Below are positions 18,241 to 51,537 of a stretch of DNA of 64,000 nucleotides, piece after piece (position 1 is the stretch's first letter; every line of letters begins with the position of its first letter). Below the pieces are notes generated by a model. It had not been told where the DNA came from. It did no database searches and worked only from the letters and a program-made list of their open reading frames with translations. The translations under genes and the position numbers were made by a program. The stretch spans positions 256,875 to 320,874 of the forward strand of contig CAWJAS010000001.1 of NCBI GenBank assembly GCA_963840935.1, read 5' to 3'. The stretch comes from Candidatus Magasanikiibacteriota bacterium. GTDB taxonomy: Bacteria > Patescibacteriota > Patescibacteriia > Magasanikbacterales > GWA2-37-8.

Positions 18241-21200
18241 GCAATGTTATTGCCGGGCAACATTCAGGTGTGGTCGCAGGCACTTATAATATTGTTACTT
18301 CTTCGAATTCATTTATCGGAGGCGGTTCAAATAATCAAATAACAAATTCCGCATCGCGCTCGTTTATCGGTGGCGGTCAATATAATTTCGCGGATGGTTT
18401 AAATTCTTTTATTGGGGGCTACGCCAACACCACCACTGGTAATAATGCGACTGCCTTCGGGTATCAGATGCAAGTTGATGGTAATTACTCTTTTGGCATA
18501 AATGTTTCCTCGACTAATCCGGCCACAATTACAAATAATAATACTATAGCTTTAATGGGTGGGAATGTTGGAGTGGGCACCACAACGCCAGAAACAAAAT
18601 TAACCATTGATTCAACTGTAGGCGCTGGTTTATTTGGTGGAATATCTTTATCTGGCGGGGGTGCTCCAACTGCGATTTTAGGTCATGCCAATATAGTTAG
18701 TAATCATTCGGGTGTTTTAGCATTATATAACAATACCCCAGCCGAATTATTACCACCAGTATTTATTCCCGCATGGACTAAATCGGCAATATTACACGGC
18801 TTGAATATTGGTACGACATCATATTCGGGAACTGGGTTGTTAAATGTCGGTCTTACCCAACAATTCCGGGTTGATAACGATGGTGACATTGCAAGGATTA
18901 AAAATATTTCTTATGATTGGCCAGACTCTCAAGGTGCCGTTGGTACTATCTTACAAAATAACGGGGCAGGAGCATTATATTGGACTGCGACATCATCGCT
19001 CGGTTTTGTTGACACAGACACCACCACATCCCCGGCCGGTTTTGACGGGTATATTCAATTTAATGAAGACGGTGAATTCGCGGCGAGTCAGAATTTATAT
19101 TGGGCCACATCAACTGGACGATTGGGTGTTGGTGACGCATCGATAGCCGGAAGTCCGACCAATAAATTATCAATTGGCGCGACACCCAGCAGTGGTTCCG
19201 CTGACGGTATGTCTATATACGGTGATGACTTATTAACTGCCTTTGTCGGTAATTACAATTCCAGTGGTGTTTATACCGGTCGTATCGGACTTTATCGCGC
19301 CGAAGACGCTGATACTGAATTAAAAACATTCATCAGTGCCAGTGCTTCATATTTTGTCGGCGGTAATGTCGGAATCGGTGTTTCAACGACAATCCCGTCT
19401 TTGTTAACCGTTGGTTCAAATAGCGGTTTCCAAGTCAATTCTTCCGGCAATTTAACAAAAATTAACAATGTCACATATTCCTGGCCAGGATCACAAGGCG
19501 CGGCTAGCACAATTTTACAAAATGACGGTTCGGGCACATTAACTTGGGTCAATACCTCCACCCTCGGTTTCGCCACCTCTTCGCACACCCATGCCACGCT
19601 CTCACAAGGTACCGGTATCGCCGCGTTTTCATACAACGGTTCATCGGCCGCCACTGTCGGTCTGGCCACTTCGGGTGTTACTGCCGGCACTTATGGCACG
19701 GTTTCAGCAGTGCCTATCTTAGTAGTTGATACCTATGGTCGTATTACTTCGGCTTCCACATCATCAATTGCCATTTCTGCCAGTCAAATTACATCCGGGA
19801 TTCTTCCTATCGCTCGTGGTGGCACTAATTCTTCAACTATCGGCGCTGCCGGTTCGGTCCCATATTCCGATGCCACTTCATACCGTTTTACAGCCGTTGG
19901 CACCTCCGGTCAAATTCTACGCTCCAACGGGGCCGGAGCCCCAACTTGGGTTTCCACTTCAACTCTCGGCATTACTGTCACTGAAACCGATCCTGTTTTT
20001 GACGCCTTGCCGGCGGCCAAAGGTGATATATTTACCGCCACGGCCAATGATACACCATCAATTTTGTCTGTCGGTACGAATGGAAAAATATTAACAGCTT
20101 CTTCTTCCGCCACTAACGGCATAGATTGGATGACGACATCTTCTCTCATCGGCACTCTTGGCACCATGGCTTATCAAAATGCTAATAACGTAAATATTTC
20201 GGGGGGAACGATTACCAGTATAGGGGATGTTACAATTAACGAAGGTCAGCTTTATGTGCATGACAATTTATATATTACAGACGGTGATAGCGATACGGTG
20301 TCCGGCATATATTTGGGTGCCACCGAAGTCGGTCAATATTTTATAACCTCAGCCGGTACTGCCGGTCAACTTTGGTCGTCTGACGGAGATGGGCGCGGAA
20401 CATGGGTGGCGACATCTTCACTTGGTATTGCTAGCGCCGGTGGTTGGACTGATGATGGCATGGTAGTGCGATTGACCACCATTATAGACAATGTCGGCAT
20501 CGGCACAACCACACCGGCGGCTAAACTGCATGTAAATATCACAACTGGCGACGGTATCATATTAGGCTCAGGAAGCAGTGGAAGCGCAGTAGCTAAATTG
20601 TTTGCCAATGGTGACTATGGCGATGTTGGTAATATATCGTTGCATTATGGCTCAAGCCAAAAAGCTTTATTATCGGCCGACGGTGTTTCCTATCTTAATG
20701 GCGGGAATGTAGGCATTGGTACCACTTCACCGGCGGCTAAACTGCATGTAAATATCACAACTGGCGACGGTATCATATTAGGCTCAGGAAGCAGTGGAAG
20801 CGCAGTAGCTAAATTGTTTGCCAATGGTGACTATGGCGATGTTGGTAATATATCGTTGCATTATGGCTCAAGCCAAAAAGCTTTATTATCGGCCGACGGT
20901 GTTTCCTATCTTAATGGCGGGAATGTAGGCATTGGTACCACTTCACCGGCGGCTAAACTGCATGTAAATATCACAACTGGCGACGGTATCATATTAGGCT
21001 CAGGAAGCAGTGGAAGCGCAGTAGCTAAATTGTTTGCCAATGGTGACTATGGCGATGTTGGTAATATATCGTTGCATTATGGCTCAAGCCAAAAAGCTTT
21101 ATTATCGGCCGACGGTGTTTCCTATCTTAATGGCGGGAATGTCGGCATTGGTACCACTTCACCGTCATACAGCTTATCTGTTGCTGGTCATATGGCAGTT

Positions 21201-27508: not shown

Positions 27509-28153
27509 ATGTCTCAGGAGGATACCATGAAAAAAGTATTTTTGGTCCTGTTCTTTTCTGGCGTAATCGTTTGGATTGCCGGTTGCAATCAAATGTCATC
27601 AACTTTTGACTGCGATGAATGCGCCGATACGGACACTGAATCAGATGAGGATTCGGATAGCGATTCCGAGACCGATTCCGACGAAGATTCCGATGATACT
27701 TATGTCAGCGATGGCATGTATTTCACGGGTGGTGATATTGCTTGGCAAGTTGCACCGCCGGATGGTGTGCTCACCCTTGCAGATGCTGTTTATTACTGTG
27801 ATAGTCTAACACTTGGTGACCATGATGATTGGCGGATTCCGACTATTTCGGAGTTGCGATCAATTGTTGTTGGTTGCCCTTCGATTGAAACCGCAGGCGA
27901 GTGTGCCATCACGGACGAGCAAACATCAGTTACCGAGATGGAAAACTGTGATGGTTGTGAATTTCTGTCCGGCCCTGGTCTTGAAGGGTGCTACTGGCCA
28001 AGTAGTTTGACCGGCGTGTGTGGTGAATATTGGAGTTGGACTACTGCGACGGGGACCGATGCTGGCTCGATTTTTTATGAAATAAATTTCAATTTTGCCA
28101 GTGTGATAACAGGCGCTCAGTCGCCTCACGTACGCTGTGTCCGCGATCTCTAA
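27509..28153 (+). CDS. Short lipoprotein (214 aa) with an acidic D/E/S-rich linker and a DUF1566-like C-terminal domain
   Basis: Lipobox WIAGCNQ, an acidic low-complexity stretch, WRIPTISELRSIVVGC, CYWP, YWS, and the protein ends VRCVRDL. Confidence 0.75.
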   Translation: MSQEDTMKKVFLVLFFSGVIVWIAGCNQMSSTFDCDECADTDTESDEDSDSDSETDSDEDSDDTYVSDGMYFTGGDIAWQVAPPDGVLTLADAVYYCDSLTLGDHDDWRIPTISELRSIVVGCPSIETAGECAITDEQTSVTEMENCDGCEFLSGPGLEGCYWPSSLTGVCGEYWSWTTATGTDAGSIFYEINFNFASVITGAQSPHVRCVRDL

Positions 28154-28376: not shown

Positions 28377-29849
28377 ATGGCAAGAAATATTGTTATTTTG
28401 TGTGGTTTTGTTTTTATATTCGTTTTCGGATGCGACCACATGGCGTCAGATATCGACTATGTTCCCGATTCGGACACTTCATCTGACGCGGATTCGGATT
28501 CTGATTCGGATACGGAAACAGAAAGCGAGGTTTGTACTCTGGTTTCCGGAGCCATACAAAAAGGGCCTTTTGTGTCTGATTCAACCCTTACCGTTTCCAT
28601 GCTTAACGCTACCGGAGCTCCGACCGGGCTTTTCTATTCCACGACGACCGAGGACGACCTGGGCACCTTCAATGTGGTCGTCCAGACCACAGGACCGTGT
28701 GAATTGGTTGCAAATGGTCTCTACTATAATGAGGTTGTGGGCAAGCTCTCAGGAGAGCCCATCACCTTGCGCGCTATCTACGAGATTTTCAATGGCGACT
28801 CGCAGAAGGCCTATTCAAATATATTTACCCACATGAGCTCGGGTCTTGCCAAGAAGCGTCTTTCTGAGGGTGACACGGTGGCCGAAGCGATTGTCTATGC
28901 TGAGAACAAGCTTTTCAACGAGCTTGGTATCCTGCACCCCTCCGGTGCCCTTGAGGGCAATGGTGCGGGGATGGACTTGATCGGAGCTAACTCGCCAGAT
29001 AATCAGTACATTGTGGCTTTGTCATGCATCGTCGCTAAGTCAGCTGAACTTCTGGCTGAGGATTCGACCGAGGTGGATGACAAATTGCAAATGCTTCTGA
29101 ATGACATCAGAAGTCAGGTGCAGGCAAGCGAAGCCATCAATCCGGAATACAAGCAGTATCTTCGAGATGGCGAAACCGCTCTTAATCCGGCAAAGGACTG
29201 CATCGAGAAATTGACTAGCTACTTGTACAATAAAACCGGCGAAGTCATGGGAATACCCGACCCGGATACTTGTTCTGACAATGATGGCGACGGTACTCCT
29301 AATTCTGCAGATCCGGACATCGACGGCGACGGCGTTCCCAATGAAGAGGACGAAGCACCCTACAACGCAAATGTTGGTGCCGGCATGTACTTCGACAGTG
29401 AGAGTGGTTACGCTTGGCAGTTAGTGTCGCCGGCCGAATATTATACATGGGCAGACGCGCAATCCTATTGCGAAGACCTTCTTGTTGGCGGGCACGACGA
29501 TTGGCGGATGCCAAGTATCAGCGAAATGCGTTCTCTTATTAGAGGATGTGCTTTAACTGAGACTAGTGGTGCGTGTGGGCTTACAGATGAATGCAACTAC
29601 CAATTGTGCTTTAATAATGCTTGTTATGTTGGTTGTTCCGGCCTTCAAGGACCCGGGATTGGTGGTTGCTATTGGCCGGATACTATGCAAGGTGAATGCG
29701 GAGCATATTGGTCGGCAACTAACAACCTAACTTTTCCTTATCTGTATTTTATTCCTATTTTTTCGCATGCATATATCGTTGCCGACCCGATTTCAACTTC
29801 GGAAACGTCTTTCGTAACGCACCTTATCCGTTGCGTCCGCGACATGTAA
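28377..29849 (+). CDS. Long lipoprotein (490 aa): paralogous N-domain, TSP3-like repeats and a DUF1566-like C-terminal domain
   Basis: Signal peptide with a lipobox (VFGCDH). The N-domain is paralogous to the 13930 gene. Repeats DNDGDGTPNSADPDIDGDGVPNEEDE, WRMPSISEMRSL, CYWP and YWS are present, and the protein ends RCVRDM. Confidence 0.75.
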   Translation: MARNIVILCGFVFIFVFGCDHMASDIDYVPDSDTSSDADSDSDSDTETESEVCTLVSGAIQKGPFVSDSTLTVSMLNATGAPTGLFYSTTTEDDLGTFNVVVQTTGPCELVANGLYYNEVVGKLSGEPITLRAIYEIFNGDSQKAYSNIFTHMSSGLAKKRLSEGDTVAEAIVYAENKLFNELGILHPSGALEGNGAGMDLIGANSPDNQYIVALSCIVAKSAELLAEDSTEVDDKLQMLLNDIRSQVQASEAINPEYKQYLRDGETALNPAKDCIEKLTSYLYNKTGEVMGIPDPDTCSDNDGDGTPNSADPDIDGDGVPNEEDEAPYNANVGAGMYFDSESGYAWQLVSPAEYYTWADAQSYCEDLLVGGHDDWRMPSISEMRSLIRGCALTETSGACGLTDECNYQLCFNNACYVGCSGLQGPGIGGCYWPDTMQGECGAYWSATNNLTFPYLYFIPIFSHAYIVADPISTSETSFVTHLIRCVRDM

Positions 29850-30017: not shown

Positions 30018-32585
30018 ATGAAACAATACGACCCCAAAAAAATAGAGAAAAAATGGCAAAAAATTTGGAACAAGGAAAAAGCCTTTTCCACGCCAAAAGA
30101 CGCCATTGAAAAAAATAAATATTATATCTTGCCTCAATTGCCGTATCCTTCCGGCTCCGGTCTTCATGTCGGCCATGCCGAGGTTTATACTGCTTGCGAT
30201 ATTTATGCCCGCTACAAGCGCATGACCGGCAAAAAAGTCCTTCAAGTGATTGGTTGGGACGCTTTTGGTTTACCAGCAGAAAATTACGCCATAAAAACAA
30301 ATGTTCATCCGCGCAAATCAACCGATAAAGCGATTGATAATTTTCGTGAACAAATAAAATCTCTTGGCGTGTCTGTGGATTGGGGCAGGGAAGTGGGTTC
30401 GCATAATCCTGATTATTATAAATGGACGCAATGGTTTTTTCTGCTTTTCTACAAACGCGGACTGGCTTATCGCAAAAAACAATCGGTCAATTGGTGCGAT
30501 TCATGTAAAACAGTTTTGGCGAATGAACAAGTAACCGGTGACGGAAAATGCGAGAGGTGTGAGACTATTGTTGAACAAAGAGAGATGGAACAGTGGTATT
30601 TGAAAATTACGGATTATGCCGACCGATTACTAAAAGATTTAGATAAATTGGATTGGCCGGAAGAAACCAAAAAACGTCAGCGCGACTGGATCGGACGCTC
30701 TGACGGAGCCGAGGTTTATTTTAATGTCATTGCGAGAAGCGAAGCGCCGAAGCAATCTAATGGGATTGCTTCGTCACCTGCTACGCATGTTCCTCGCAAT
30801 GACAAAAAAATCACCGTTTTCACCACCCGGCCAGACACGTTGTTCGGCGCGACATTTATGGTACTCGCGCCCGAGCATAAATTAGTTCAGCAGTTAAAAG
30901 ACAAAATTAAGAATTGGAAAGAGGTTGAAAAATATATTAATGAAGCAAAACTCAAAACGGACCTCGACCGTCAAATACAAAAAGAAAAAACAGGAGTGGA
31001 ATTAAAAGGAATTAAGGCGATAAATCCGGCGAACAATGAAGAGATTCCTATTTTTATTGCCGATTATGTTTTGGCCACTTATGGCTTTGGCGCGATTATG
31101 GCCGTTCCGGCTCATGATGAGCGAGATTTTGAATTTGCAAAAAAATATGGGTTATTGGTTAAACAGGTTGTCATTGCGAGAAGCGAAGCGACGAAGCAAT
31201 CTCATGGGATCGCCGCGTCACTCGCTCCGCTTGTTCCTCGCGATGACAATAAGAGTTGTTATACCGGCGAAGGCGTTTCAATCAATTCCGATTTTTTAAA
31301 CGGCTTATCAACCAAAGAAGCATCTGCCAAAATGATTGGCTGGCTTCACGAAAAAAAATTGGGCAAGCGAAAAATTCAATACAAACTTCGCGACTGGTCG
31401 GTGTCCCGCCAACGCTTTTGGGGCGCCCCGATTCCTGTCCTGTATGATGAAAAAAATGAACTGCATCCGGTGTCGGAAAAAGATTTGCCGGTAATTTTGC
31501 CTGATGATGTTGATTTTAAGCCGACCGGTGAGTCGCCATTAAACTATTCAAAAAGTTTTAACAAGGGAGTAGAAAAAAAATACGGCAAGGGTTGGCACCG
31601 CGAACCCGATACGCTTGATACATTCATGTGTTCCAGTTGGTATTTTTTCCGCTATTTGGATCCGAAAAATGACAAAGCGTTTGCTTCGCCCGAAGCGCTG
31701 AAAACTTGGATGCCGGTGGATTTTTATTTGGGCGGAGCCGAGCATGTCAACAGCCATCTTTTGTATTCACGATTTTTTACCAAAGTTTTGTTTGATGAGG
31801 GGCTGATTGATTTTGATGAACCGTTTATAACCCATCGTCATCAAGGAATGATTTTGGGCGAAGATAATCACAAAATGAGCAAACGCTGGGGCAACGCGAT
31901 AAATCCGACCGATGTAATAAATGAATTTGGCGCGGATACTTTGCGCTGTTATGAAATGTTTATGGGACCTCTTGAGGCCGATAAACCATGGGATACAAAC
32001 GGTGTGCGTGGAATACGCAGATTTTTGGAGCGTGTTTGGAATTTACAGTCGCGTGTCATTGCGAGCGAAGCGAAGCAATCCCATGGGGTCGCTTCGTCGC
32101 TTGCTTCGCAGTCTCCTCGCGATGACAAATTGAATCGCCTCATCCACCAAACAATAAAAAAAGTGTCAGAGGATTTGGAAAATATGCGTTTTAATACCGC
32201 CATCGCCAAAATGATGGAATTGATTAACGAATTTTCAAAAGAGGAGAAGATTGCTAAAAGTAATTTTGAGGCGCTAATATTAATACTGGCGCCGTTTGCC
32301 CCGCATATGTGTGAGGAGCTTTGGAGTTTGCTGGGTCATAAGAATATTTTGGCTTTTGAAAAATTTCCGGAATATGATAAAAAATTGATTGAAGAAACTG
32401 AAATTACCTTGGCCGTGCAGGTTAACGGCAAATTGCGAGATACTTTGATTGTGCCGGCGGATATTACTGATAATGATGCTAAAAAATTGTCTTTGGCCAG
32501 TGAAAAGGTACAAAAATGGCTCGAGGGTAAAGAACCTAAAAAAATAATTTATATTAAAGGAAAACTGGTGAGCATTGTGGTTTGA
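30018..32585 (+). CDS. leuS: Leucyl-tRNA synthetase carrying three in-frame palindromic-element insertions
   Basis: HIGH-type motif (PYPSGSGLHVGHA), KMSKR, TTRPDT and a conserved C-terminal region. Three extra segments interrupt otherwise conserved blocks: VIARSEAPKQSNGIASSPATHVPRNDK, VIARSEATKQSHGIAASLAPLVPRDDNK and VIASEAKQSHGVASSLASQSPRDDK. Confidence 0.9.
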   Translation: MKQYDPKKIEKKWQKIWNKEKAFSTPKDAIEKNKYYILPQLPYPSGSGLHVGHAEVYTACDIYARYKRMTGKKVLQVIGWDAFGLPAENYAIKTNVHPRKSTDKAIDNFREQIKSLGVSVDWGREVGSHNPDYYKWTQWFFLLFYKRGLAYRKKQSVNWCDSCKTVLANEQVTGDGKCERCETIVEQREMEQWYLKITDYADRLLKDLDKLDWPEETKKRQRDWIGRSDGAEVYFNVIARSEAPKQSNGIASSPATHVPRNDKKITVFTTRPDTLFGATFMVLAPEHKLVQQLKDKIKNWKEVEKYINEAKLKTDLDRQIQKEKTGVELKGIKAINPANNEEIPIFIADYVLATYGFGAIMAVPAHDERDFEFAKKYGLLVKQVVIARSEATKQSHGIAASLAPLVPRDDNKSCYTGEGVSINSDFLNGLSTKEASAKMIGWLHEKKLGKRKIQYKLRDWSVSRQRFWGAPIPVLYDEKNELHPVSEKDLPVILPDDVDFKPTGESPLNYSKSFNKGVEKKYGKGWHREPDTLDTFMCSSWYFFRYLDPKNDKAFASPEALKTWMPVDFYLGGAEHVNSHLLYSRFFTKVLFDEGLIDFDEPFITHRHQGMILGEDNHKMSKRWGNAINPTDVINEFGADTLRCYEMFMGPLEADKPWDTNGVRGIRRFLERVWNLQSRVIASEAKQSHGVASSLASQSPRDDKLNRLIHQTIKKVSEDLENMRFNTAIAKMMELINEFSKEEKIAKSNFEALILILAPFAPHMCEELWSLLGHKNILAFEKFPEYDKKLIEETEITLAVQVNGKLRDTLIVPADITDNDAKKLSLASEKVQKWLEGKEPKKIIYIKGKLVSIVV
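30726..30803. repeat. Palindromic MITE-like element (78 bp) inserted in-frame in leuS
   Basis: Terminal inverted repeats gtcattgcgag ... ctcgcaatgac with an internal gaagcgaagc/gcttcg palindrome. Length is a multiple of 3. Located in the loop before TTRPDT. Confidence 0.75.
31170..31247. repeat. Palindromic MITE-like element (78 bp) inserted in-frame in leuS
   Basis: gtcattgcgag ... ctcgcgatgac. Length is a multiple of 3. Confidence 0.75.
32055..32126. repeat. Palindromic MITE-like element (72 bp) inserted in-frame in leuS
   Basis: gtcattgcgag ... ctcgcgatgac. Length is a multiple of 3. Confidence 0.75.
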
Positions 32586-40853: not shown

Positions 40854-40863
40854 ATCGTTCAGT

Positions 40864-40987
40864 GTCATTGCGAGCCGCCAAAGGGGGCGCGGCAATCCCA
40901 TTGTTTTCAGAGCTATGTTGTTGGTTCAAAATACCGTGGGATCGCCACGTCGCTTCCTGCCTGCAGGCAGGCGCTCCTCGCGATGAC
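40864..40987. repeat. Palindromic MITE-like element (124 bp) in the groES 5' UTR
   Basis: Same termini as the leuS copies (gtcattgcgag ... ctcgcgatgac), with an extra internal palindrome cctgcctgcaggcagg. Confidence 0.7.
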
Positions 40988-41011
40988 AAATAATTTATTA
41001 ATTTTATATAT

Positions 41012-45468: not shown

Positions 45469-45654
45469 ATGGAAAAATATAAACCGGAAATTAATTTTAA
45501 TCAAATTAATTCAATAGAAGGACAATTAGAAAAATTGCGTTCCGAATACGCCCGGGCAAAAAATGATCCCCGTCACAAAACAAGAGCGCAAGAATTGTTG
45601 CGAAAAATAAACCAGCTTGAAAAAGCAAAATATAATTCGCTTTATAAAAAATGA
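45469..45654 (+). CDS. Small basic coiled-coil hypothetical protein
   Basis: 61 aa, ending 4 nt into uvrB. Confidence 0.3.
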   Translation: MEKYKPEINFNQINSIEGQLEKLRSEYARAKNDPRHKTRAQELLRKINQLEKAKYNSLYKK

Positions 45655-46967
45655 AATTTAAATTACATTCAAAATACAAACCGGCTGGAGATCAGCCAAA
45701 GGCCATCGACCAATTGGTCGATGGTTTAAAAAAAGGGTTTGATAAACAAACTCTGCTTGGTGTTACCGGTTCGGGAAAAACATTTACCGTCGCCAATGTA
45801 ATTGAAAAATCGCAATTACCAACTTTGGTTATCGCGCACAACAAAACTTTGGCAGCGCAATTGTGTAATGAGTTCCGTGAATTTTTTCCGAATAATGCGG
45901 TTGAATATTTTGTTTCATATTATGATTATTATCAACCGGAAGCGTATTTGCCAGGGTCAGACACATACATAGAAAAAGAAGCAATGATCAACCAAGAAAT
46001 TGATCGCTTGCGCCATGCTTGCACGCAAGCGCTTTTAACTCGGCGCGATGTTATTATTGTCGCTTCGGTTTCCGCTATTTATGGATTAGGTTCGCCTAAA
46101 CAATATGAAAATATTGTTTTGCATTTAACCGTCCACCAAAAATTAAACCGCTCAAAACTCCTTAAACAATTGATTGATATGCAATTTGGGCGGACCAGTA
46201 CCGATTTAAAAAGAGGGGAGTTTCGCTTGCGCGGACAAGTTTTGGAAATTATGCCGGTCAACGAAGAAATGATTTATCGTCTTCAAGTGAACGAACAAAT
46301 TGAATCAATTGAAGCAATAGACCCGCTTACAAGAAAAATGAAGCGCGAACAAAATGATCTCTGGCTTTTTCCGTCAAAACATTACGTGGTCGGCGAAGAA
46401 GCAAAAGAAAATGCTTTCAAAGAAATACGCGATGAATTAAAAAAACAACTCAAGAATTTTGAAAAAGCTGGAAAAGTTTTGGAATATGAAAGATTAAAAC
46501 GCCGAACGAATTATGATTTGGAGATGATAAAAAATATCGGTTATTGCAATGGCATTGAAAATTATTCCAGGCATTTTGACGGGCGAGTGTCGGGTGAACC
46601 ACCATTTACTCTTCTTGATTATTTTGCTTATGGAAATAGTGATGGTTTTCTAACAATAATTGATGAATCACATGTGACCGTTCCGCAAATTCGTGGAATG
46701 TATTTTGGTGACAGGTCGCGCAAAGATACATTGGTTGAACATGGGTTCAGATTGCCAAGCGCTCGCGACAATCGCCCGCTTCAATTTGATGAATTTGAAT
46801 TGAGAACAAAAAATACCATATATATGTCTGCCACTCCGAGCGACTATGAAATTAAAGAAAGCGACCAAGTGGTTGAGCAGATTGTTCGGCCGACCGGTTT
46901 GATTGACCCGGAGGTTATTATTAGGCCGGTGACGGGAAAAGAAGGTGAAATTGTCGCAGGTGGATGA
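45651..46967 (+). CDS. uvrB: Excinuclease ABC subunit B, N-terminal ~435 aa (gene is interrupted downstream)
   Basis: Walker A ([10 protein letters not shown]), the beta-hairpin region [10 protein letters not shown], and helicase motifs. Confidence 0.85.
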
Positions 46968-47245
46968 TCTGTTGGTGAGAATTGATGAGCGGATTAAAAT
47001 CGGTGAGCGTGTTTTGGCAACAACTTTAACTAAAAAGATGGCAGAAGATCTGTCTGAATATTTGGAAAAGAAAGAAAATTAAAGTTAAATATTTACATAG
47101 CGACATAGATACGATTGAACGAATAGAAATTATTACTGATTTGCGTTTGGGTAAAATTGATGTGATTGTCGGCGTGAATTTGCTTCGCGAAGGTTTGGAT
47201 ATGCCGGAAGTTTCTTTGGTGGCGATTCTTGGACGCGGATAAAGA
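46940..47245 (+). pseudogene. uvrB: uvrB central segment carrying three +/-1 frameshifts
   Basis: Conserved UvrB peptides can be read only by switching frames three times: [39 protein letters not shown], then [50 protein letters not shown], then DADKEGFLR. The implied indels are in short homopolymers. Confidence 0.7.
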
Positions 47246-47726
47246 AGGATTTTTGCGCAATTCCACCTCTCTCATACAAACAATCGGCCGGGCGGCTCGA
47301 AATGTGAATGGGCAAGTTGTTTTGTATGCCGATGTAATTACCGGTTCAATTAAACAAGCCGTTCGAGAGACTGATAGACGGCGTAAAATACAAATTGAGT
47401 ACAACAAACAACATGGCATTACGCCAAAAACAATTGAAAAAAATATCAGAAATATTTTGGAGGAGTTTGGCCTATCTTCATCAAAAAACAAGAACACAAA
47501 AACATTAAAACAAAAACGCGACCGAACGATTGCGGAATTGGATACATTGGGAGACGGTAGGCCGACGGAGGAAATTATCAGAGACAAAGAAAAACAAATG
47601 CGTAAATCGGCGAAGAATTTACAATTCGAACTGGCGGCTATTTTGCGGGATGAAATACATGAATTGAGTAAAAAGTCAGATGTGTCATCGCGAGGAGGAG
47701 CAAAGCGACGACGTGGCAATCTATAA
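47229..47726 (+). CDS. uvrB: Excinuclease ABC subunit B, C-terminal part including the UVR domain
   Basis: [27 protein letters not shown] ... [11 protein letters not shown]. Confidence 0.8.
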
Positions 47727-48777: not shown

Positions 48778-51537
48778 TTGAAACGCATGCAGGAAAAAAT
48801 CATAATTAAAGGCGCGCGGGAACATAATTTGAAGAATATAAATCTTGAAATTCCGCGCAACAAAATGATTGTGTTCACAGGACTGTCCGGCTCGGGCAAG
48901 TCCTCTTTGGCATTTGATACGATTTTTGCCGAAGGCCAACGCCGTTATGTGGAATCTTTGTCCGCTTATGCCCGACAATTTTTGGGCGGAATGCAAAAAC
49001 CGGATGTTGATGAAATTGAAGGATTGTCTCCGGCCATTTCCATTGACCAAAAAGCGCACAGCGCCAACCCGCGCTCCACGGTCGCCACAATCACCGAAAT
49101 TTATGATTATTTGCGCGTTTTGTTTGCCCGCGTTGGTACGCCATTTTGCCCGATTTGCGGTCACAAAATTGAGAAGATGACAGTTGATGAAATAAAAGAA
49201 AAAATTATTGATGGCGTCGAATCAATCGTCGCGTGTCATCCCCGCGTCCCGAAGGGATCCCTTTGGGAAAGACGGGAATCCAGACAACAGATCCTTCACT
49301 CCGTTCAGGATGACAAAATGAGATTGCCACGTCGCTCTTCGGTCGCTTCTCGCAATAACACTATCAAAGAACTTGTTATTCTTTCCCCCGTAGTTCGAGG
49401 AAGAAAAGGGGAGTATTACCAGATGCTTTATGATTTGTATAATTCCGGTTTTGCCGAAGTGCGAATCGATAATAAATTTTATGGTTTGAAAGACAGGATA
49501 GTTTTGTCAAAAAATAAAAAACACACGATTGAAGTGGTAGTCGACAGAATATTTTTTGATGATGCTAAAAAATTAAATAGTGACAAAGAATTAAAACAAA
49601 GATTTGCCGAAGCGATTGAGACAGCAGTTGATTTGTCCAACGGACTCGCGAATGTTGTTTTCCCCGATAAAAATGAACAAATTTTTTCCACGGAATATTC
49701 ATGCCCGAATGACGGTTTTAGCTTTCCGGAAATTGAGCCTCGTCTTTTTAGTTTTAATAGTCCTTATGGCTATTGTGAGGCTTGCACCGGCCTTGGCACG
49801 AAGGAATTATTCAGCGAAGAGATTTGCCCCAAATGCAACGGGAAACGCTTGAATGACAATGCTTTGAGCGTGCGTATTTACAATAAAAATATTTGGGAGA
49901 TAGTATCCATGACAATTTCTGAAGCGCGGGAATTTTTTACACATCTGGAAAATAATTTGGGAGCGAAAGAAAAAGAAATTTCCGGAGCGGTGATTCGGGA
50001 AATCAATAACCGACTGGATTTTATGTTTAATGTTGGTTTGCACTATTTAACTTTGGAAAGACGAGCCGGATCGTTGTCTGGCGGTGAAGCTCAGCGAATA
50101 CGCCTGGCTTCGCAAGTCGGCACGCGTTTGGTTGGCGCTCTTTATGTTTTGGACGAACCGACAATCGGATTGCATCAGAAAGACAATGAACAGCTGGTAA
50201 AAACTTTGCGTAATCTTTGCGATATTGGTAATACGATTATTGTGGTTGAACATGATGAAGACACGATACTTGCGAGCGATTGGGTGGTGGATATCGGACC
50301 GGGTGCCGGTAAACACGGCGGAGAGATAGTTTACTCGGGACCGCTCGATGTCATTCTGAACGGAGCGAAGCGAAGTGAAGAATCTTTGGAAAATAATAAA
50401 GGATCCTTCGCTATCGCTCAGGATGACAAAACGGACTACTACGCTATCGTTGGCAACCCGATAGCTTCTCTCACCGGTCAATATTTACGAGGAGAGAAAA
50501 AAATTGCCATGCCTGATAAGCGTCGGAAAGTTGACAATACAACGCCGAAATTAAAAATTAAAGGAGCGGTAGCTCACAATTTAAAAAATATTGATGTTCA
50601 AATTCCTTTGCGCCGTTTTGTTTGTTTAACCGGAGTATCCGGTTCGGGCAAGTCAACGTTAATGCACGATATAATCGAGCGCAATTTACAAAATAGATTT
50701 TTTAGGATGAACAAACAATCGGGCCAAGTAAAATCCATTACCGGCAGTGAATACTTAGACGGCGTAATTACCATTAATCAATCGCCGATAGGGCGTACCC
50801 CACGTTCCAATCCGGCAACATATACCAAAGCATTTGACCATATTCGCGAAATATTTTCCGCCACTCCCGAAGCCCGAATGCGCGGATTTGGCCCGGGTAG
50901 ATTCAGTTTTAATGTGCCCGGAGGAAGATGCGAAAATTGTGAAGGGCGTGGAGCGCTCCAAATTGAAATGCATTTTTTGCCGAGTGTAGAAATTGTTTGT
51001 GACGTATGCAAAGGCAAAAGATTTAATCAAGAAACTTTAGCCGTCCACTATAAAGGAAAAAATATTTCTGATATTCTAAATATGACGATAGAAGAAGCGC
51101 AGGTGTTTTTTAAAGATATTCCGCAGATAAACGATAAGCTAAAAATGCTTAATGAAGTTGGCTTGGATTATTTGACGTTGGGTCAGTCGGCCACCACGCT
51201 TTCCGGCGGTGAAGCCCAGCGAATAAAATTATCAAAAGAATTATCAAGGTATGGCCACACAAAAACCCTCTATCTTTTGGATGAACCGACTACAGGATTG
51301 CACTATGATGACGTAAAAAAATTATTGGAAGTTTTACAGCGTCTTGTTTCTCAAGGCAATACCGTTTTGGTAATCGAACATAATTTGGATGTTATTAAAT
51401 GCGCCGACTGGGTAATTGATTTGGGTCCGGAAGGCGGGGATAAGGGCGGTGAATTAGTTGCCGATGGTACTCCTGAAGAAGTGGCGAGAAAATCAGGTAG
51501 TCATACCGGTTTTTATTTGCGGAGATTTTTAAAATAA
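48778..51537 (+). CDS. uvrA: Excinuclease ABC subunit A, with two in-frame repeat-element insertions
   Basis: Two ABC ATPase modules (GLSGSGKSSLAFDT, GVSGSGKSTL, LSGGEAQRI x2) and zinc-finger cysteines. Extra segments lie at about aa 150-195 and about aa 525-550. Confidence 0.9.
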   Translation: MKRMQEKIIIKGAREHNLKNINLEIPRNKMIVFTGLSGSGKSSLAFDTIFAEGQRRYVESLSAYARQFLGGMQKPDVDEIEGLSPAISIDQKAHSANPRSTVATITEIYDYLRVLFARVGTPFCPICGHKIEKMTVDEIKEKIIDGVESIVACHPRVPKGSLWERRESRQQILHSVQDDKMRLPRRSSVASRNNTIKELVILSPVVRGRKGEYYQMLYDLYNSGFAEVRIDNKFYGLKDRIVLSKNKKHTIEVVVDRIFFDDAKKLNSDKELKQRFAEAIETAVDLSNGLANVVFPDKNEQIFSTEYSCPNDGFSFPEIEPRLFSFNSPYGYCEACTGLGTKELFSEEICPKCNGKRLNDNALSVRIYNKNIWEIVSMTISEAREFFTHLENNLGAKEKEISGAVIREINNRLDFMFNVGLHYLTLERRAGSLSGGEAQRIRLASQVGTRLVGALYVLDEPTIGLHQKDNEQLVKTLRNLCDIGNTIIVVEHDEDTILASDWVVDIGPGAGKHGGEIVYSGPLDVILNGAKRSEESLENNKGSFAIAQDDKTDYYAIVGNPIASLTGQYLRGEKKIAMPDKRRKVDNTTPKLKIKGAVAHNLKNIDVQIPLRRFVCLTGVSGSGKSTLMHDIIERNLQNRFFRMNKQSGQVKSITGSEYLDGVITINQSPIGRTPRSNPATYTKAFDHIREIFSATPEARMRGFGPGRFSFNVPGGRCENCEGRGALQIEMHFLPSVEIVCDVCKGKRFNQETLAVHYKGKNISDILNMTIEEAQVFFKDIPQINDKLKMLNEVGLDYLTLGQSATTLSGGEAQRIKLSKELSRYGHTKTLYLLDEPTTGLHYDDVKKLLEVLQRLVSQGNTVLVIEHNLDVIKCADWVIDLGPEGGDKGGELVADGTPEEVARKSGSHTGFYLRRFLK
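49235..49365. repeat. Diverged palindromic MITE-like element(s) (about 130 bp, one full plus one partial copy) in-frame in uvrA
   Basis: gtcatcc...ggatgac inverted repeats, then gccacgtcgctcttcggtcgcttctcgcaataac, which resembles the leuS copy (gccgcgtcactcgctccgcttgttcctcgcgatgac). Confidence 0.5.
50350..50427. repeat. Diverged palindromic MITE-like element (78 bp) in-frame in uvrA
   Basis: gtcattctgaacggagcgaagcgaag ... gctcaggatgac. Compare the leuS copies gtcattgcgagaagcgaagcg ... cctcgcgatgac. Length is a multiple of 3. Confidence 0.55.

Follow-up and report, generated by a model that had tools for sequence, protein, structure and literature searches.

Repetitive extragenic palindromic (REP) sequences that carry a CGTC or TGTC tag form a superfamily that includes dRS3 of Neisseria and the Rickettsia palindromic elements (RPEs) RPE-4 and RPE-6 (Di Nocera, De Gregorio & Rocco 2013, PMC3733652). 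Its members have a CGTC tag (variants TGTC and CCTC), a stem that opens with A-T and T-A pairs and a tail with the consensus CCA, and the four defined families have stems of 8–9 bp and loops of 4–5 nt; they occur mostly as head-to-head dimers, and a dedicated transposase is not known (PMC3733652). In-frame dimers encode 20–30 residues and have been reported in uvrA, in uvrB (R. conorii) and in several tRNA synthetase genes, those in uvrA being two in Thioalkalivibrio and dimers in both uvrA genes of Opitutus terrae; the excess of REPs in excision-repair and recombination genes was left unexplained and considered hard to ascribe to chance (PMC3733652). Here, we analyse a 64,000-nt stretch of a Candidatus Magasanikiibacteriota genome (contig CAWJAS010000001.1, positions 256,875–320,874; ‘the window’ denotes this whole stretch), in which the uvrA gene encodes two segments, inserts 1 and 2, that are extra relative to canonical UvrA. 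These segments are very probably in-frame copies of a REP-like, non-autonomous palindromic repeat. The phenomenon is thus already known, including in uvrA; what is new is the host phylum and an atypical geometry of the repeat unit.

Of the systems compared, the CGTC/TGTC-tagged superfamily is the best match to the window elements. The likeness extends to the outer unpaired TGTC tag, the A-T/T-A opening of the stem (in the left arms and in both uvrA right arms), the head-to-head arrangement of all six window elements, the short tail that begins with C, although this reads C(C/T)N in the window and CCA in REPs, and the set of genes affected, namely uvrA twice, the end of uvrB and leuS three times. 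In contrast, the window units have five perfect pairs and an interior of 11–21 nt conserved around GAGCGAAGCGA, Patescibacteria lay outside the 2013 survey, and most window copies are intragenic.

Other described systems fit less closely. RPEs (Ogata et al. 2000, via PMC10969869) are described as ~150 bp long and were judged not to conflict with the host protein's fold and function; the window elements resemble them as in-frame palindromes in housekeeping genes of a small-genome bacterium that are absent from orthologues and hit the same gene repeatedly, but measure 72–82 nt against the figure of about 150 bp given there, and any link comes from the literature that assigns RPE-4 and RPE-6 to the CGTC REPs. 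REPINs (Bertels & Rainey 2011, PMC3116915) are built from GTAG-type REPs, are overwhelmingly extragenic and have a cognate REP-associated tyrosine transposase (RAYT) gene in the genome. They share with the window elements an inverted pair of hairpins around a less conserved spacer, the whole folding as one hairpin, but here the tag is TGTC, not GTAG, and most copies are intragenic; no RAYT was seen in the window or near the units found elsewhere. Miniature inverted-repeat transposable elements and intragenic ERIC/BOX sequences are likewise short non-autonomous repeats able to make in-frame fusions or coding repeats (PMC10969869); the window elements have terminal inverted repeats but no recognisable target-site duplication and no parent insertion sequence. 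PARCELs are described as intragenic tandem repeats (PMC2996958), which the window elements are not. Introns and inteins differ in that no Rfam family matches and in that the inserts span 26 and 44 codons, compared with at least ~130 residues for a splicing domain. Literature searches for the element strings, and for REPs together with Patescibacteria, returned nothing linking such repeats to this phylum.

Two extra segments in UvrA

Relatives of the window UvrA place its source in the Patescibacteria, close to Magasanikbacteria. The protein (919 aa from a TTG codon at 48778) has solved UvrA structures as its full-length best match, and ATG at 48787 seems the likelier start because homologues begin at MQ(D/E)KI. 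It matches Geobacillus UvrA (2r6f) from end to end (E = 4e-302), yet residues 146–198 align to only 6 residues of that structure and residues 529–559 to none, so that segments of about 47 and 30 residues are without counterpart in solved structures; the net additions are about 44 codons (insert 1) and 26 codons (insert 2), and the encoded peptides include VILNGAKRSEESLENNK and CHPRVPKGSLWER. The closest UvrA (P0002; 856 aa, 92% identity over aligned columns) has neither insert. An earlier reading of the sequence alone had proposed two such extra segments; the reference alignment and P0002 both bear it out, and the nucleotide strings it quoted were all found where it placed them.

Pfam UvrA_inter, the UvrB-interaction domain, matches residues 197–295, which puts insert 1 at the N-terminal edge of the UvrB-binding domain. 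Insert 2 falls, by the 2r6f alignment, in the linker that joins the two ATP-binding cassette (ABC) halves, the nucleotide-binding domains NBD-I and NBD-II. Separately, the window UvrA is without the ~113-residue canonical insertion domain (2r6f residues 305–417; the gap lies at 49806–49812, residues 343/344), as are 19 of the 19 close Patescibacteria homologues aligned, and the Pfam family for that domain matched neither the window UvrA nor P0002.

The repeat unit is ~25–35 nt long and comprises an unpaired TGTC tag, AT followed by three variable bases, a loop, the complement of the stem and a C-rich tail. Two units set head to head around a free spacer make an element of ~80 nt that can form one long hairpin as single-stranded DNA or RNA. 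The features of uvrA are:

48778..51537, + strand: uvrA open reading frame (ORF)
49234..49315, + strand: insert 1, inner head-to-head dimer, TGTCATCC...GGATGACA; GTC..GAC = 80 nt; translated CHPRVPKGSLWERRESRQQILHSVQDD
49235–49259: insert 1, left unit, GTC-ATCCC-loop-GGGAT-C
49290–49314: insert 1, right unit, reverse complement GTC-ATCCT-GAACGGAGTGA-AGGAT-C
49322..49360, + strand: insert 1, outer right half-unit of leuS type, GATTGCCACGTCGCT...CTCGCAATAACA, with GCCACGTCGCTCTTCGGTCGCTTCTCGCAATAAC at 49327–49359; translated ..LPRRSSVASRNN
50349..50428, + strand: insert 2, head-to-head dimer; GTC..GAC core of 78 nt at 50350–50427, GTCATTCTGAACGGAGCGAAGCGAAG...GCTCAGGATGAC; translated VILNGAKRSEESLENNKGSFAIAQDD
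50350–50384: insert 2, left unit, stem ATTCT/AGAAT; loop includes GCGAAGC
50385–50401: insert 2, spacer, 17 nt
50402–50427: insert 2, right unit, stem ATCCT/AGGAT; opposite-strand loop includes GCGATAGC

Insert 2 is old and keeps its stems

The core of insert 2 measures exactly 78 nt, which confirms the earlier description of this copy as a multiple of three; it starts at the first position of a uvrA codon and folds strongly as single-stranded DNA (z = -4.46). An element occupies the identical codon (GPL[D/S]|VIL) in five UvrA lineages (the window, P0004, P0016, P0024 and P0013), the others having 72–88% protein identity to the window UvrA (best BLASTP). All five elements pair a left ATTCT stem with a right ATCCT stem and are invariant in tags and stems; their loops vary, and so do their spacers, in sequence as well as in length. 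In a comparison of the window with P0004, the two hairpin units are identical at 59 of 61 positions, whereas the 17-nt spacer is identical at 7 of 17 and third codon positions across the whole of uvrA at 55% (first and second positions, 91%). These figures make insert 2 an old insertion whose hairpin stems are more conserved than coding can explain. The enlarged 21-nt left loop differs at one position between the window and P0004 and is similar in P0016 (three differences), and this shared, derived feature argues for common descent of the three elements. Selection on insert 2, gene conversion from other copies or re-insertion of the consensus could each produce the invariance of the stems.

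Insert 1 is a decayed composite

Insert 1 joins two parts, an 82-nt dimer and, downstream of it, the right half of another element, of leuS type. By itself the 80-nt GTC..GAC dimer is not a multiple of three; compared with the nearest relative, insert 1 adds a net 44 codons (132 nt). The outer half matches the leuS and intergenic copies described below in their right arms and is common to the orthologous position in P0003, whose interior is different, which makes the outer element the older one, its left part having been overwritten or invaded by the inner dimer, or being missing. The inner dimer is a decayed palindrome, because the DNA fold of the 82 nt is weak (z = -0.94), with the within-arm stems still intact. 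Over 22 nt, the right arm of insert 1 is 91% complementary to the left arm of insert 2.

The sequence-only reading had taken both segments for diverged versions of the leuS element and their divergence as a sign of older, tolerated insertions. Membership of one superfamily holds, but the stems differ from those of leuS and only the trailing half of insert 1 is of leuS type. Greater age is upheld for insert 2, present at the same codon in five lineages, and for the outer half of insert 1 through P0003. Divergence is not a uniform decay: insert 1 has lost most of its foldability, while in insert 2 the spacer and loops are saturated and the tags and stems invariant. Tolerance by the protein family is evident; the closest UvrA is without both segments and other relatives carry them patchily.

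Presence and absence among UvrA relatives

P0004 has insert 2 but not insert 1, and P0003 has different repeat-like sequences at both sites. P0004 and P0006, from independent assemblies, are 98–100% identical in uvrA DNA apart from a single tract at site 2, which measures about 125 nt in the gene that has the element and about 70 nt in the gene that lacks it; as they are otherwise nearly identical, the element is a presence/absence polymorphism within a species-level lineage.

Extra sequence at site 2 is widespread, with at least 15 extra residues in 36 of 119 UvrA homologues. Members of other subfamilies (VIASEAKQS.., VIPSEV.., VIARSKAPKQS..) lie 5–9 codons deeper in the site-2 linker of other homologues, and their placement at different codons indicates that this linker has been hit independently at least three times. 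The shorter, ‘native’ linkers often read IILSGK.., NILSGK.. or VILGKEKN.., and one might speculate that these too are decayed remnants of the element.

Further copies in the window

Across the window there are six matches to TGTCAT-N55-85-ATGACA where 0.12 would be expected, and none of 100 shuffles (0/100) reached six; the pattern is therefore not there by chance. Five of these matches and a 126-nt copy have a common anatomy; the seventh TGTCAT...ATGACA match, at 29020–29106, lacks the structure of the units and was discounted as a chance match. Each of the six full elements begins with TGTCAT and ends with ATGACA, so the tags face outward, and five of the six lie inside genes. Their tails read CTA, CTC, CCC, CCC, CCC and CTT, all with C first and none matching CCA. 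The copies outside uvrA are:

30725..30804, + strand: leuS copy 1, in frame; VIARSEAPKQSNGIASSPATHVPRND; single-stranded DNA fold z = -6.7
31169..31248, + strand: leuS copy 2, in frame
32054..32127, + strand: leuS copy 3, in frame; 72-nt core
40863..40988, + strand: intergenic copy upstream of groES, 126 nt; single-stranded DNA fold z = -2.19
47683..47721, + strand: solo unit at the end of uvrB, TGTCATCGCGAGGAGGAGCAAAGCGACGACGTGGCAATC; starts TGTCAT

The three leuS copies fold with z between -3.5 and -6.7. They are absent in most of 27 LeuRS relatives, some of which have other subfamilies at the same sites, and the leuS of one relative encodes the classic peptide VIPAQAGIQ. Empty leuS sites are blurred by native residues that resemble the element end (NDK/DDK). 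Stretches like the right end persist at ‘empty’ sites, as at leuS site 3 of P0125 (SQSPSDDK, compared with SQSPRDDK in the window) and at uvrA site 2 of the P0002 genome (L001; CCGGAATAAAAAATAAAA compared with CAGGATGACAAAAC), and such remnants suggest that elements may be lost by internal deletion, not by precise excision.

The window leuS (30018..32585) encodes 855 aa without extra Pfam domain matches; many Magasanikbacteria-like LeuRS homologues (P0127–P0234) are 940–1200 aa long and have Pfam NUDIX (PF00293) and/or alpha/beta-hydrolase domains (PF00561, PF06821).

The solo unit encodes the last ~13 residues of UvrB, with the stop codon (47724–47726) directly after it, and three uvrB relatives end 11 codons earlier, without these 37 nt. 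Compared with three close orthologues, uvrB also contains one extra base at each of three places, about 46946, 47070 and 47228; these split it into ORFs at 45651..46967 and 47229..47726, the frame being restored after the third. Three +1 indels within 280 nt point either to a pseudogene or to a stretch where the assembly is error-prone.

The hairpin unit and its distribution

The loop of the unit is usually built around GAGCGAAGCGA, which includes the mini-hairpin motif GCGAAGC. Stems are ATTGC/GCAAT in leuS, ATTCT/AGAAT and ATCCT/AGGAT in insert 2, and ATCCC/GGGAT and ATCCT/AGGAT in insert 1. In uvrA, all four arms have a perfect within-arm stem, and within each element the stem of one arm differs from that of the other, such that pairing across the arms meets a wobble or mismatch at the variable stem position in both elements; in the leuS and intergenic copies, the right arms failed the scan for perfect stems. 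GCGNAGC and GCGNNAGC are known as ‘mini-hairpin DNA’ motifs (PMC13037366), and by sequence both the GCGAAGC loop core and GCGATAGC of the insert 2 right unit fit them; on paper, the consensus unit can be drawn with a stem of 9 bp that runs through two tandem G.A mismatches to a GAA triloop.

Covariation was assessed with the pattern GTCANNNNGAGCGAAGCGANNNNTC, in which stem positions are free and no complementarity is imposed. The variable stem (4 bp) covaries: matches were fully Watson-Crick paired in 109 of 121 cases among viral contigs (10 stem types) and, among the matches listed for species-representative genomes, in 130 of 146 (12 stem types). The few non-Watson-Crick cases have no clear G.U preference, and from them the RNA and DNA levels of the hairpin cannot be told apart. 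The genome matches listed come from metagenome-assembled genomes (MAGs) of Acidobacteriota, Nitrospirota, Planctomycetota, Chloroflexota, Bacteroidota, Gemmatimonadota, Verrucomicrobiota, Bacillota, Proteobacteria, Omnitrophota and Patescibacteria. In this set, 62 of 146 units have an inverted partner within 160 nt, giving dimers of 61–177 nt; 21 of these 62 lengths are divisible by three, which is no enrichment, and the copies in frame are thus a selected subset. The arm variant found in uvrA, TGTCATYCTGAACGGAGYGAAG, occurs in at least 120 metagenome stretches on contigs of median GC 0.54. Among the matches listed, no ORF of at least 100 aa spans 79 of 128 units, and only 7 of 128 lie in ORFs of at least 250 aa. 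Outside this lineage the family is thus broadly REP-like and mostly extragenic, and the mainly intragenic, in-frame placement in this genome is unusual for it; that placement is most simply explained if selection removes every copy that breaks a gene.

The unit is also frequent in related viral contigs of IMG/VR (loci L006–L225), of which 45 have one protein in common. At least one large ORF on these contigs (for example on L132), by eye possibly a phage structural protein, contains the in-frame repeat peptides ..VILSPSPPVILTLNEVKGKDL..ATSPRFSGASRNDR.. Regular tandem arrays occur in a Bacteroidaceae MAG (L232, 3563–4217; seven copies at 105-nt intervals), a metagenome contig (L401, 1573–1993; four copies at 133-nt intervals) and a viral contig (L074, 442–943; three copies at 238-nt intervals).

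Origin and maintenance of the inserts

We propose that copies of the repeat have spread or been exchanged within and between genomes, with homologous recombination of element-bearing alleles directly visible as one probable route, and that an intragenic copy would persist only where the frame stays intact, no stop codon arises and the site is a permissive linker, which in this gene would be either the stretch that joins the ABC halves or the N-terminal border of the UvrB-binding domain. Read through, the inserts would add about 44 and 26 residues, probably disordered, with an effect on UvrA that is most likely neutral or slightly deleterious.

Several observations weigh against this account. 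The difference between P0004 and P0006 replaces the whole loop, including about 45 nt of downstream flank, and so looks like allelic recombination, not a clean insertion or excision; neither a target-site duplication nor a clean empty site could be defined. All-against-all BLAST of 7,895 ORFs from about 340 element-bearing loci, with clusters inspected by eye, revealed no recurrent transposase-like neighbour in about 120 genome loci: clusters from viral loci look like phage structural proteins, those from genome loci like generic families such as sensor kinases and dehydrogenases, and no transposition mechanism was evident from the loci compared. That the inserts are translated is very likely, but is read from the intact frames only. 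An AlphaFold2 model of UvrA (20-sequence alignment; mean predicted local distance difference test 53, predicted template modelling score 0.33), in which the inserts are low-confidence coil, as is half of the protein, was not used as evidence and is too poor at that mean score to place the inserts as surface loops. If the uvrB indels are real, excision repair may be defunct in this organism and tolerance of the inserts trivial, although this would not hold for relatives with the same insert. Finally, the invariant stems inside uvrA could mean that the element is not merely tolerated junk.

How site 2 came to be filled is the point on which a rival account fares best. Repeated, independent insertion at a preferred target, in place of one old insertion that was inherited or recombined, is somewhat unlikely, though several observations speak for it: the arm variant TGTCATYCTGAACGGAGYGAAG is common enough in metagenomes that two lineages could have identical arms without orthology, hetero-dimers of ATTCT and ATCCT are found in other phyla, and other subfamilies have clearly reached this linker by insertions of their own, at +5 to +9 codons. 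However, the near-identical 21-nt left loop of the window and P0004, with its similar counterpart in P0016, the location of these three elements at one codon with related downstream flanks, and a spacer whose length is exactly conserved between the window and P0004 though its sequence is saturated, all favour a single old insertion.

Retention of the hairpins in uvrA for an action in cis, through an mRNA or DNA structure that tunes expression or stability or through ribosome pausing between the ABC halves, is considerably less probable. Invariant tags and stems in five lineages whose spacers, loops and synonymous sites are saturated are what such an action would predict, as is the position of insert 2 exactly at the NBD-I/NBD-II junction, and the over-representation of REPs in genes for excision repair and recombination, left unexplained by its authors (PMC3733652), points the same way. 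Yet the element is dispensable, because the closest relatives are without it and a ~99% identical pair differs in it, and the fold of insert 1 is largely lost. The unit consensus is moreover conserved across phyla at mostly extragenic places, so conservation may belong to the family, through recognition by an enzyme or gene conversion, and not to uvrA.

It is extremely improbable that the segments are native, lineage-specific insertion domains of UvrA whose palindromic look is incidental. Site-2 linkers in Patescibacteria are generally longer than in Geobacillus and both sites lie in regions of variable UvrA length, but a native conserved domain is excluded, in that the nearest relative P0002 is without both segments and other relatives have them patchily; related elements lie in leuS, in intergenic DNA and at the end of uvrB, the hairpin unit occurs in many phyla and viral contigs, and pattern matches are in excess in the window (six against 0.12). 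Together these data already refute this reading.

Equally remote is removal of the inserts before or during translation, by an intron, an intein or translational bypassing (which strong hairpins can promote in other systems), to leave a canonical protein, as no Rfam family, introns included, matches, 26–44 codons fall well below the size of an intein, every intragenic copy preserves the frame and is free of stops in the frame used, which removal would not need, and dozens of homologues with different inserts are all open. Rfam gave nothing meaningful in the whole window (gathering threshold), in 15 element-bearing loci or in a permissive scan of 49200–50460.

Implications for Patescibacteria proteins and for excision-repair genes

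As in-frame copies of a palindromic repeat, the inserts extend to the Candidate Phyla Radiation a process best known in Rickettsia, with the essential genes leuS and uvrA affected and insertion widespread among related UvrA and LeuRS proteins. This accounts for many odd low-complexity segments and length differences in Patescibacteria proteins (VILSEAK.., SLRGA.., ..AQDDK, ..PRNDK), which should not be read as domains. The elements also provide material for two questions, namely what conserves one hairpin consensus across phyla without a known transposase, and why excision-repair genes are so often the targets of tagged REPs.

On the second of these, tagged hairpins recur in uvrA twice and uvrB once in the window and, according to the literature, in uvrA of Opitutus and Thioalkalivibrio and uvrB of Rickettsia. 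We regard it as unlikely, though worth stating, that this recurrence across phyla is no accident and that the hairpins are kept at the nucleotide level, as might be suggested by stems and tags that are invariant where synonymous sites are saturated. If so, the repeats would act in cis on repair genes, or repair proteins and hairpins would interact functionally; much of the long Patescibacteria-specific linker between the UvrA halves might then be fossil repeat, and motifs like IILSGK...RDEE would be protein sequence born de novo from a selfish palindrome.

Other repeats in the window

Very large repetitive coding regions occupy 5100–26150, where one 76-nt motif occurs at least nine times, a 216-nt unit is tandemly repeated at 20490–21164 and 300-nt blocks are duplicated 14 kb apart; these repeats suggest paralogous giant repeat proteins. 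At 27624–27711 and 28465–28528, near the starts of two neighbouring ORFs, lie Asp/Ser/Thr-rich repeats of the GATTC[GC]GA type with a 12-nt period, and one of the two ORFs opens with a hydrophobic stretch resembling a signal peptide.

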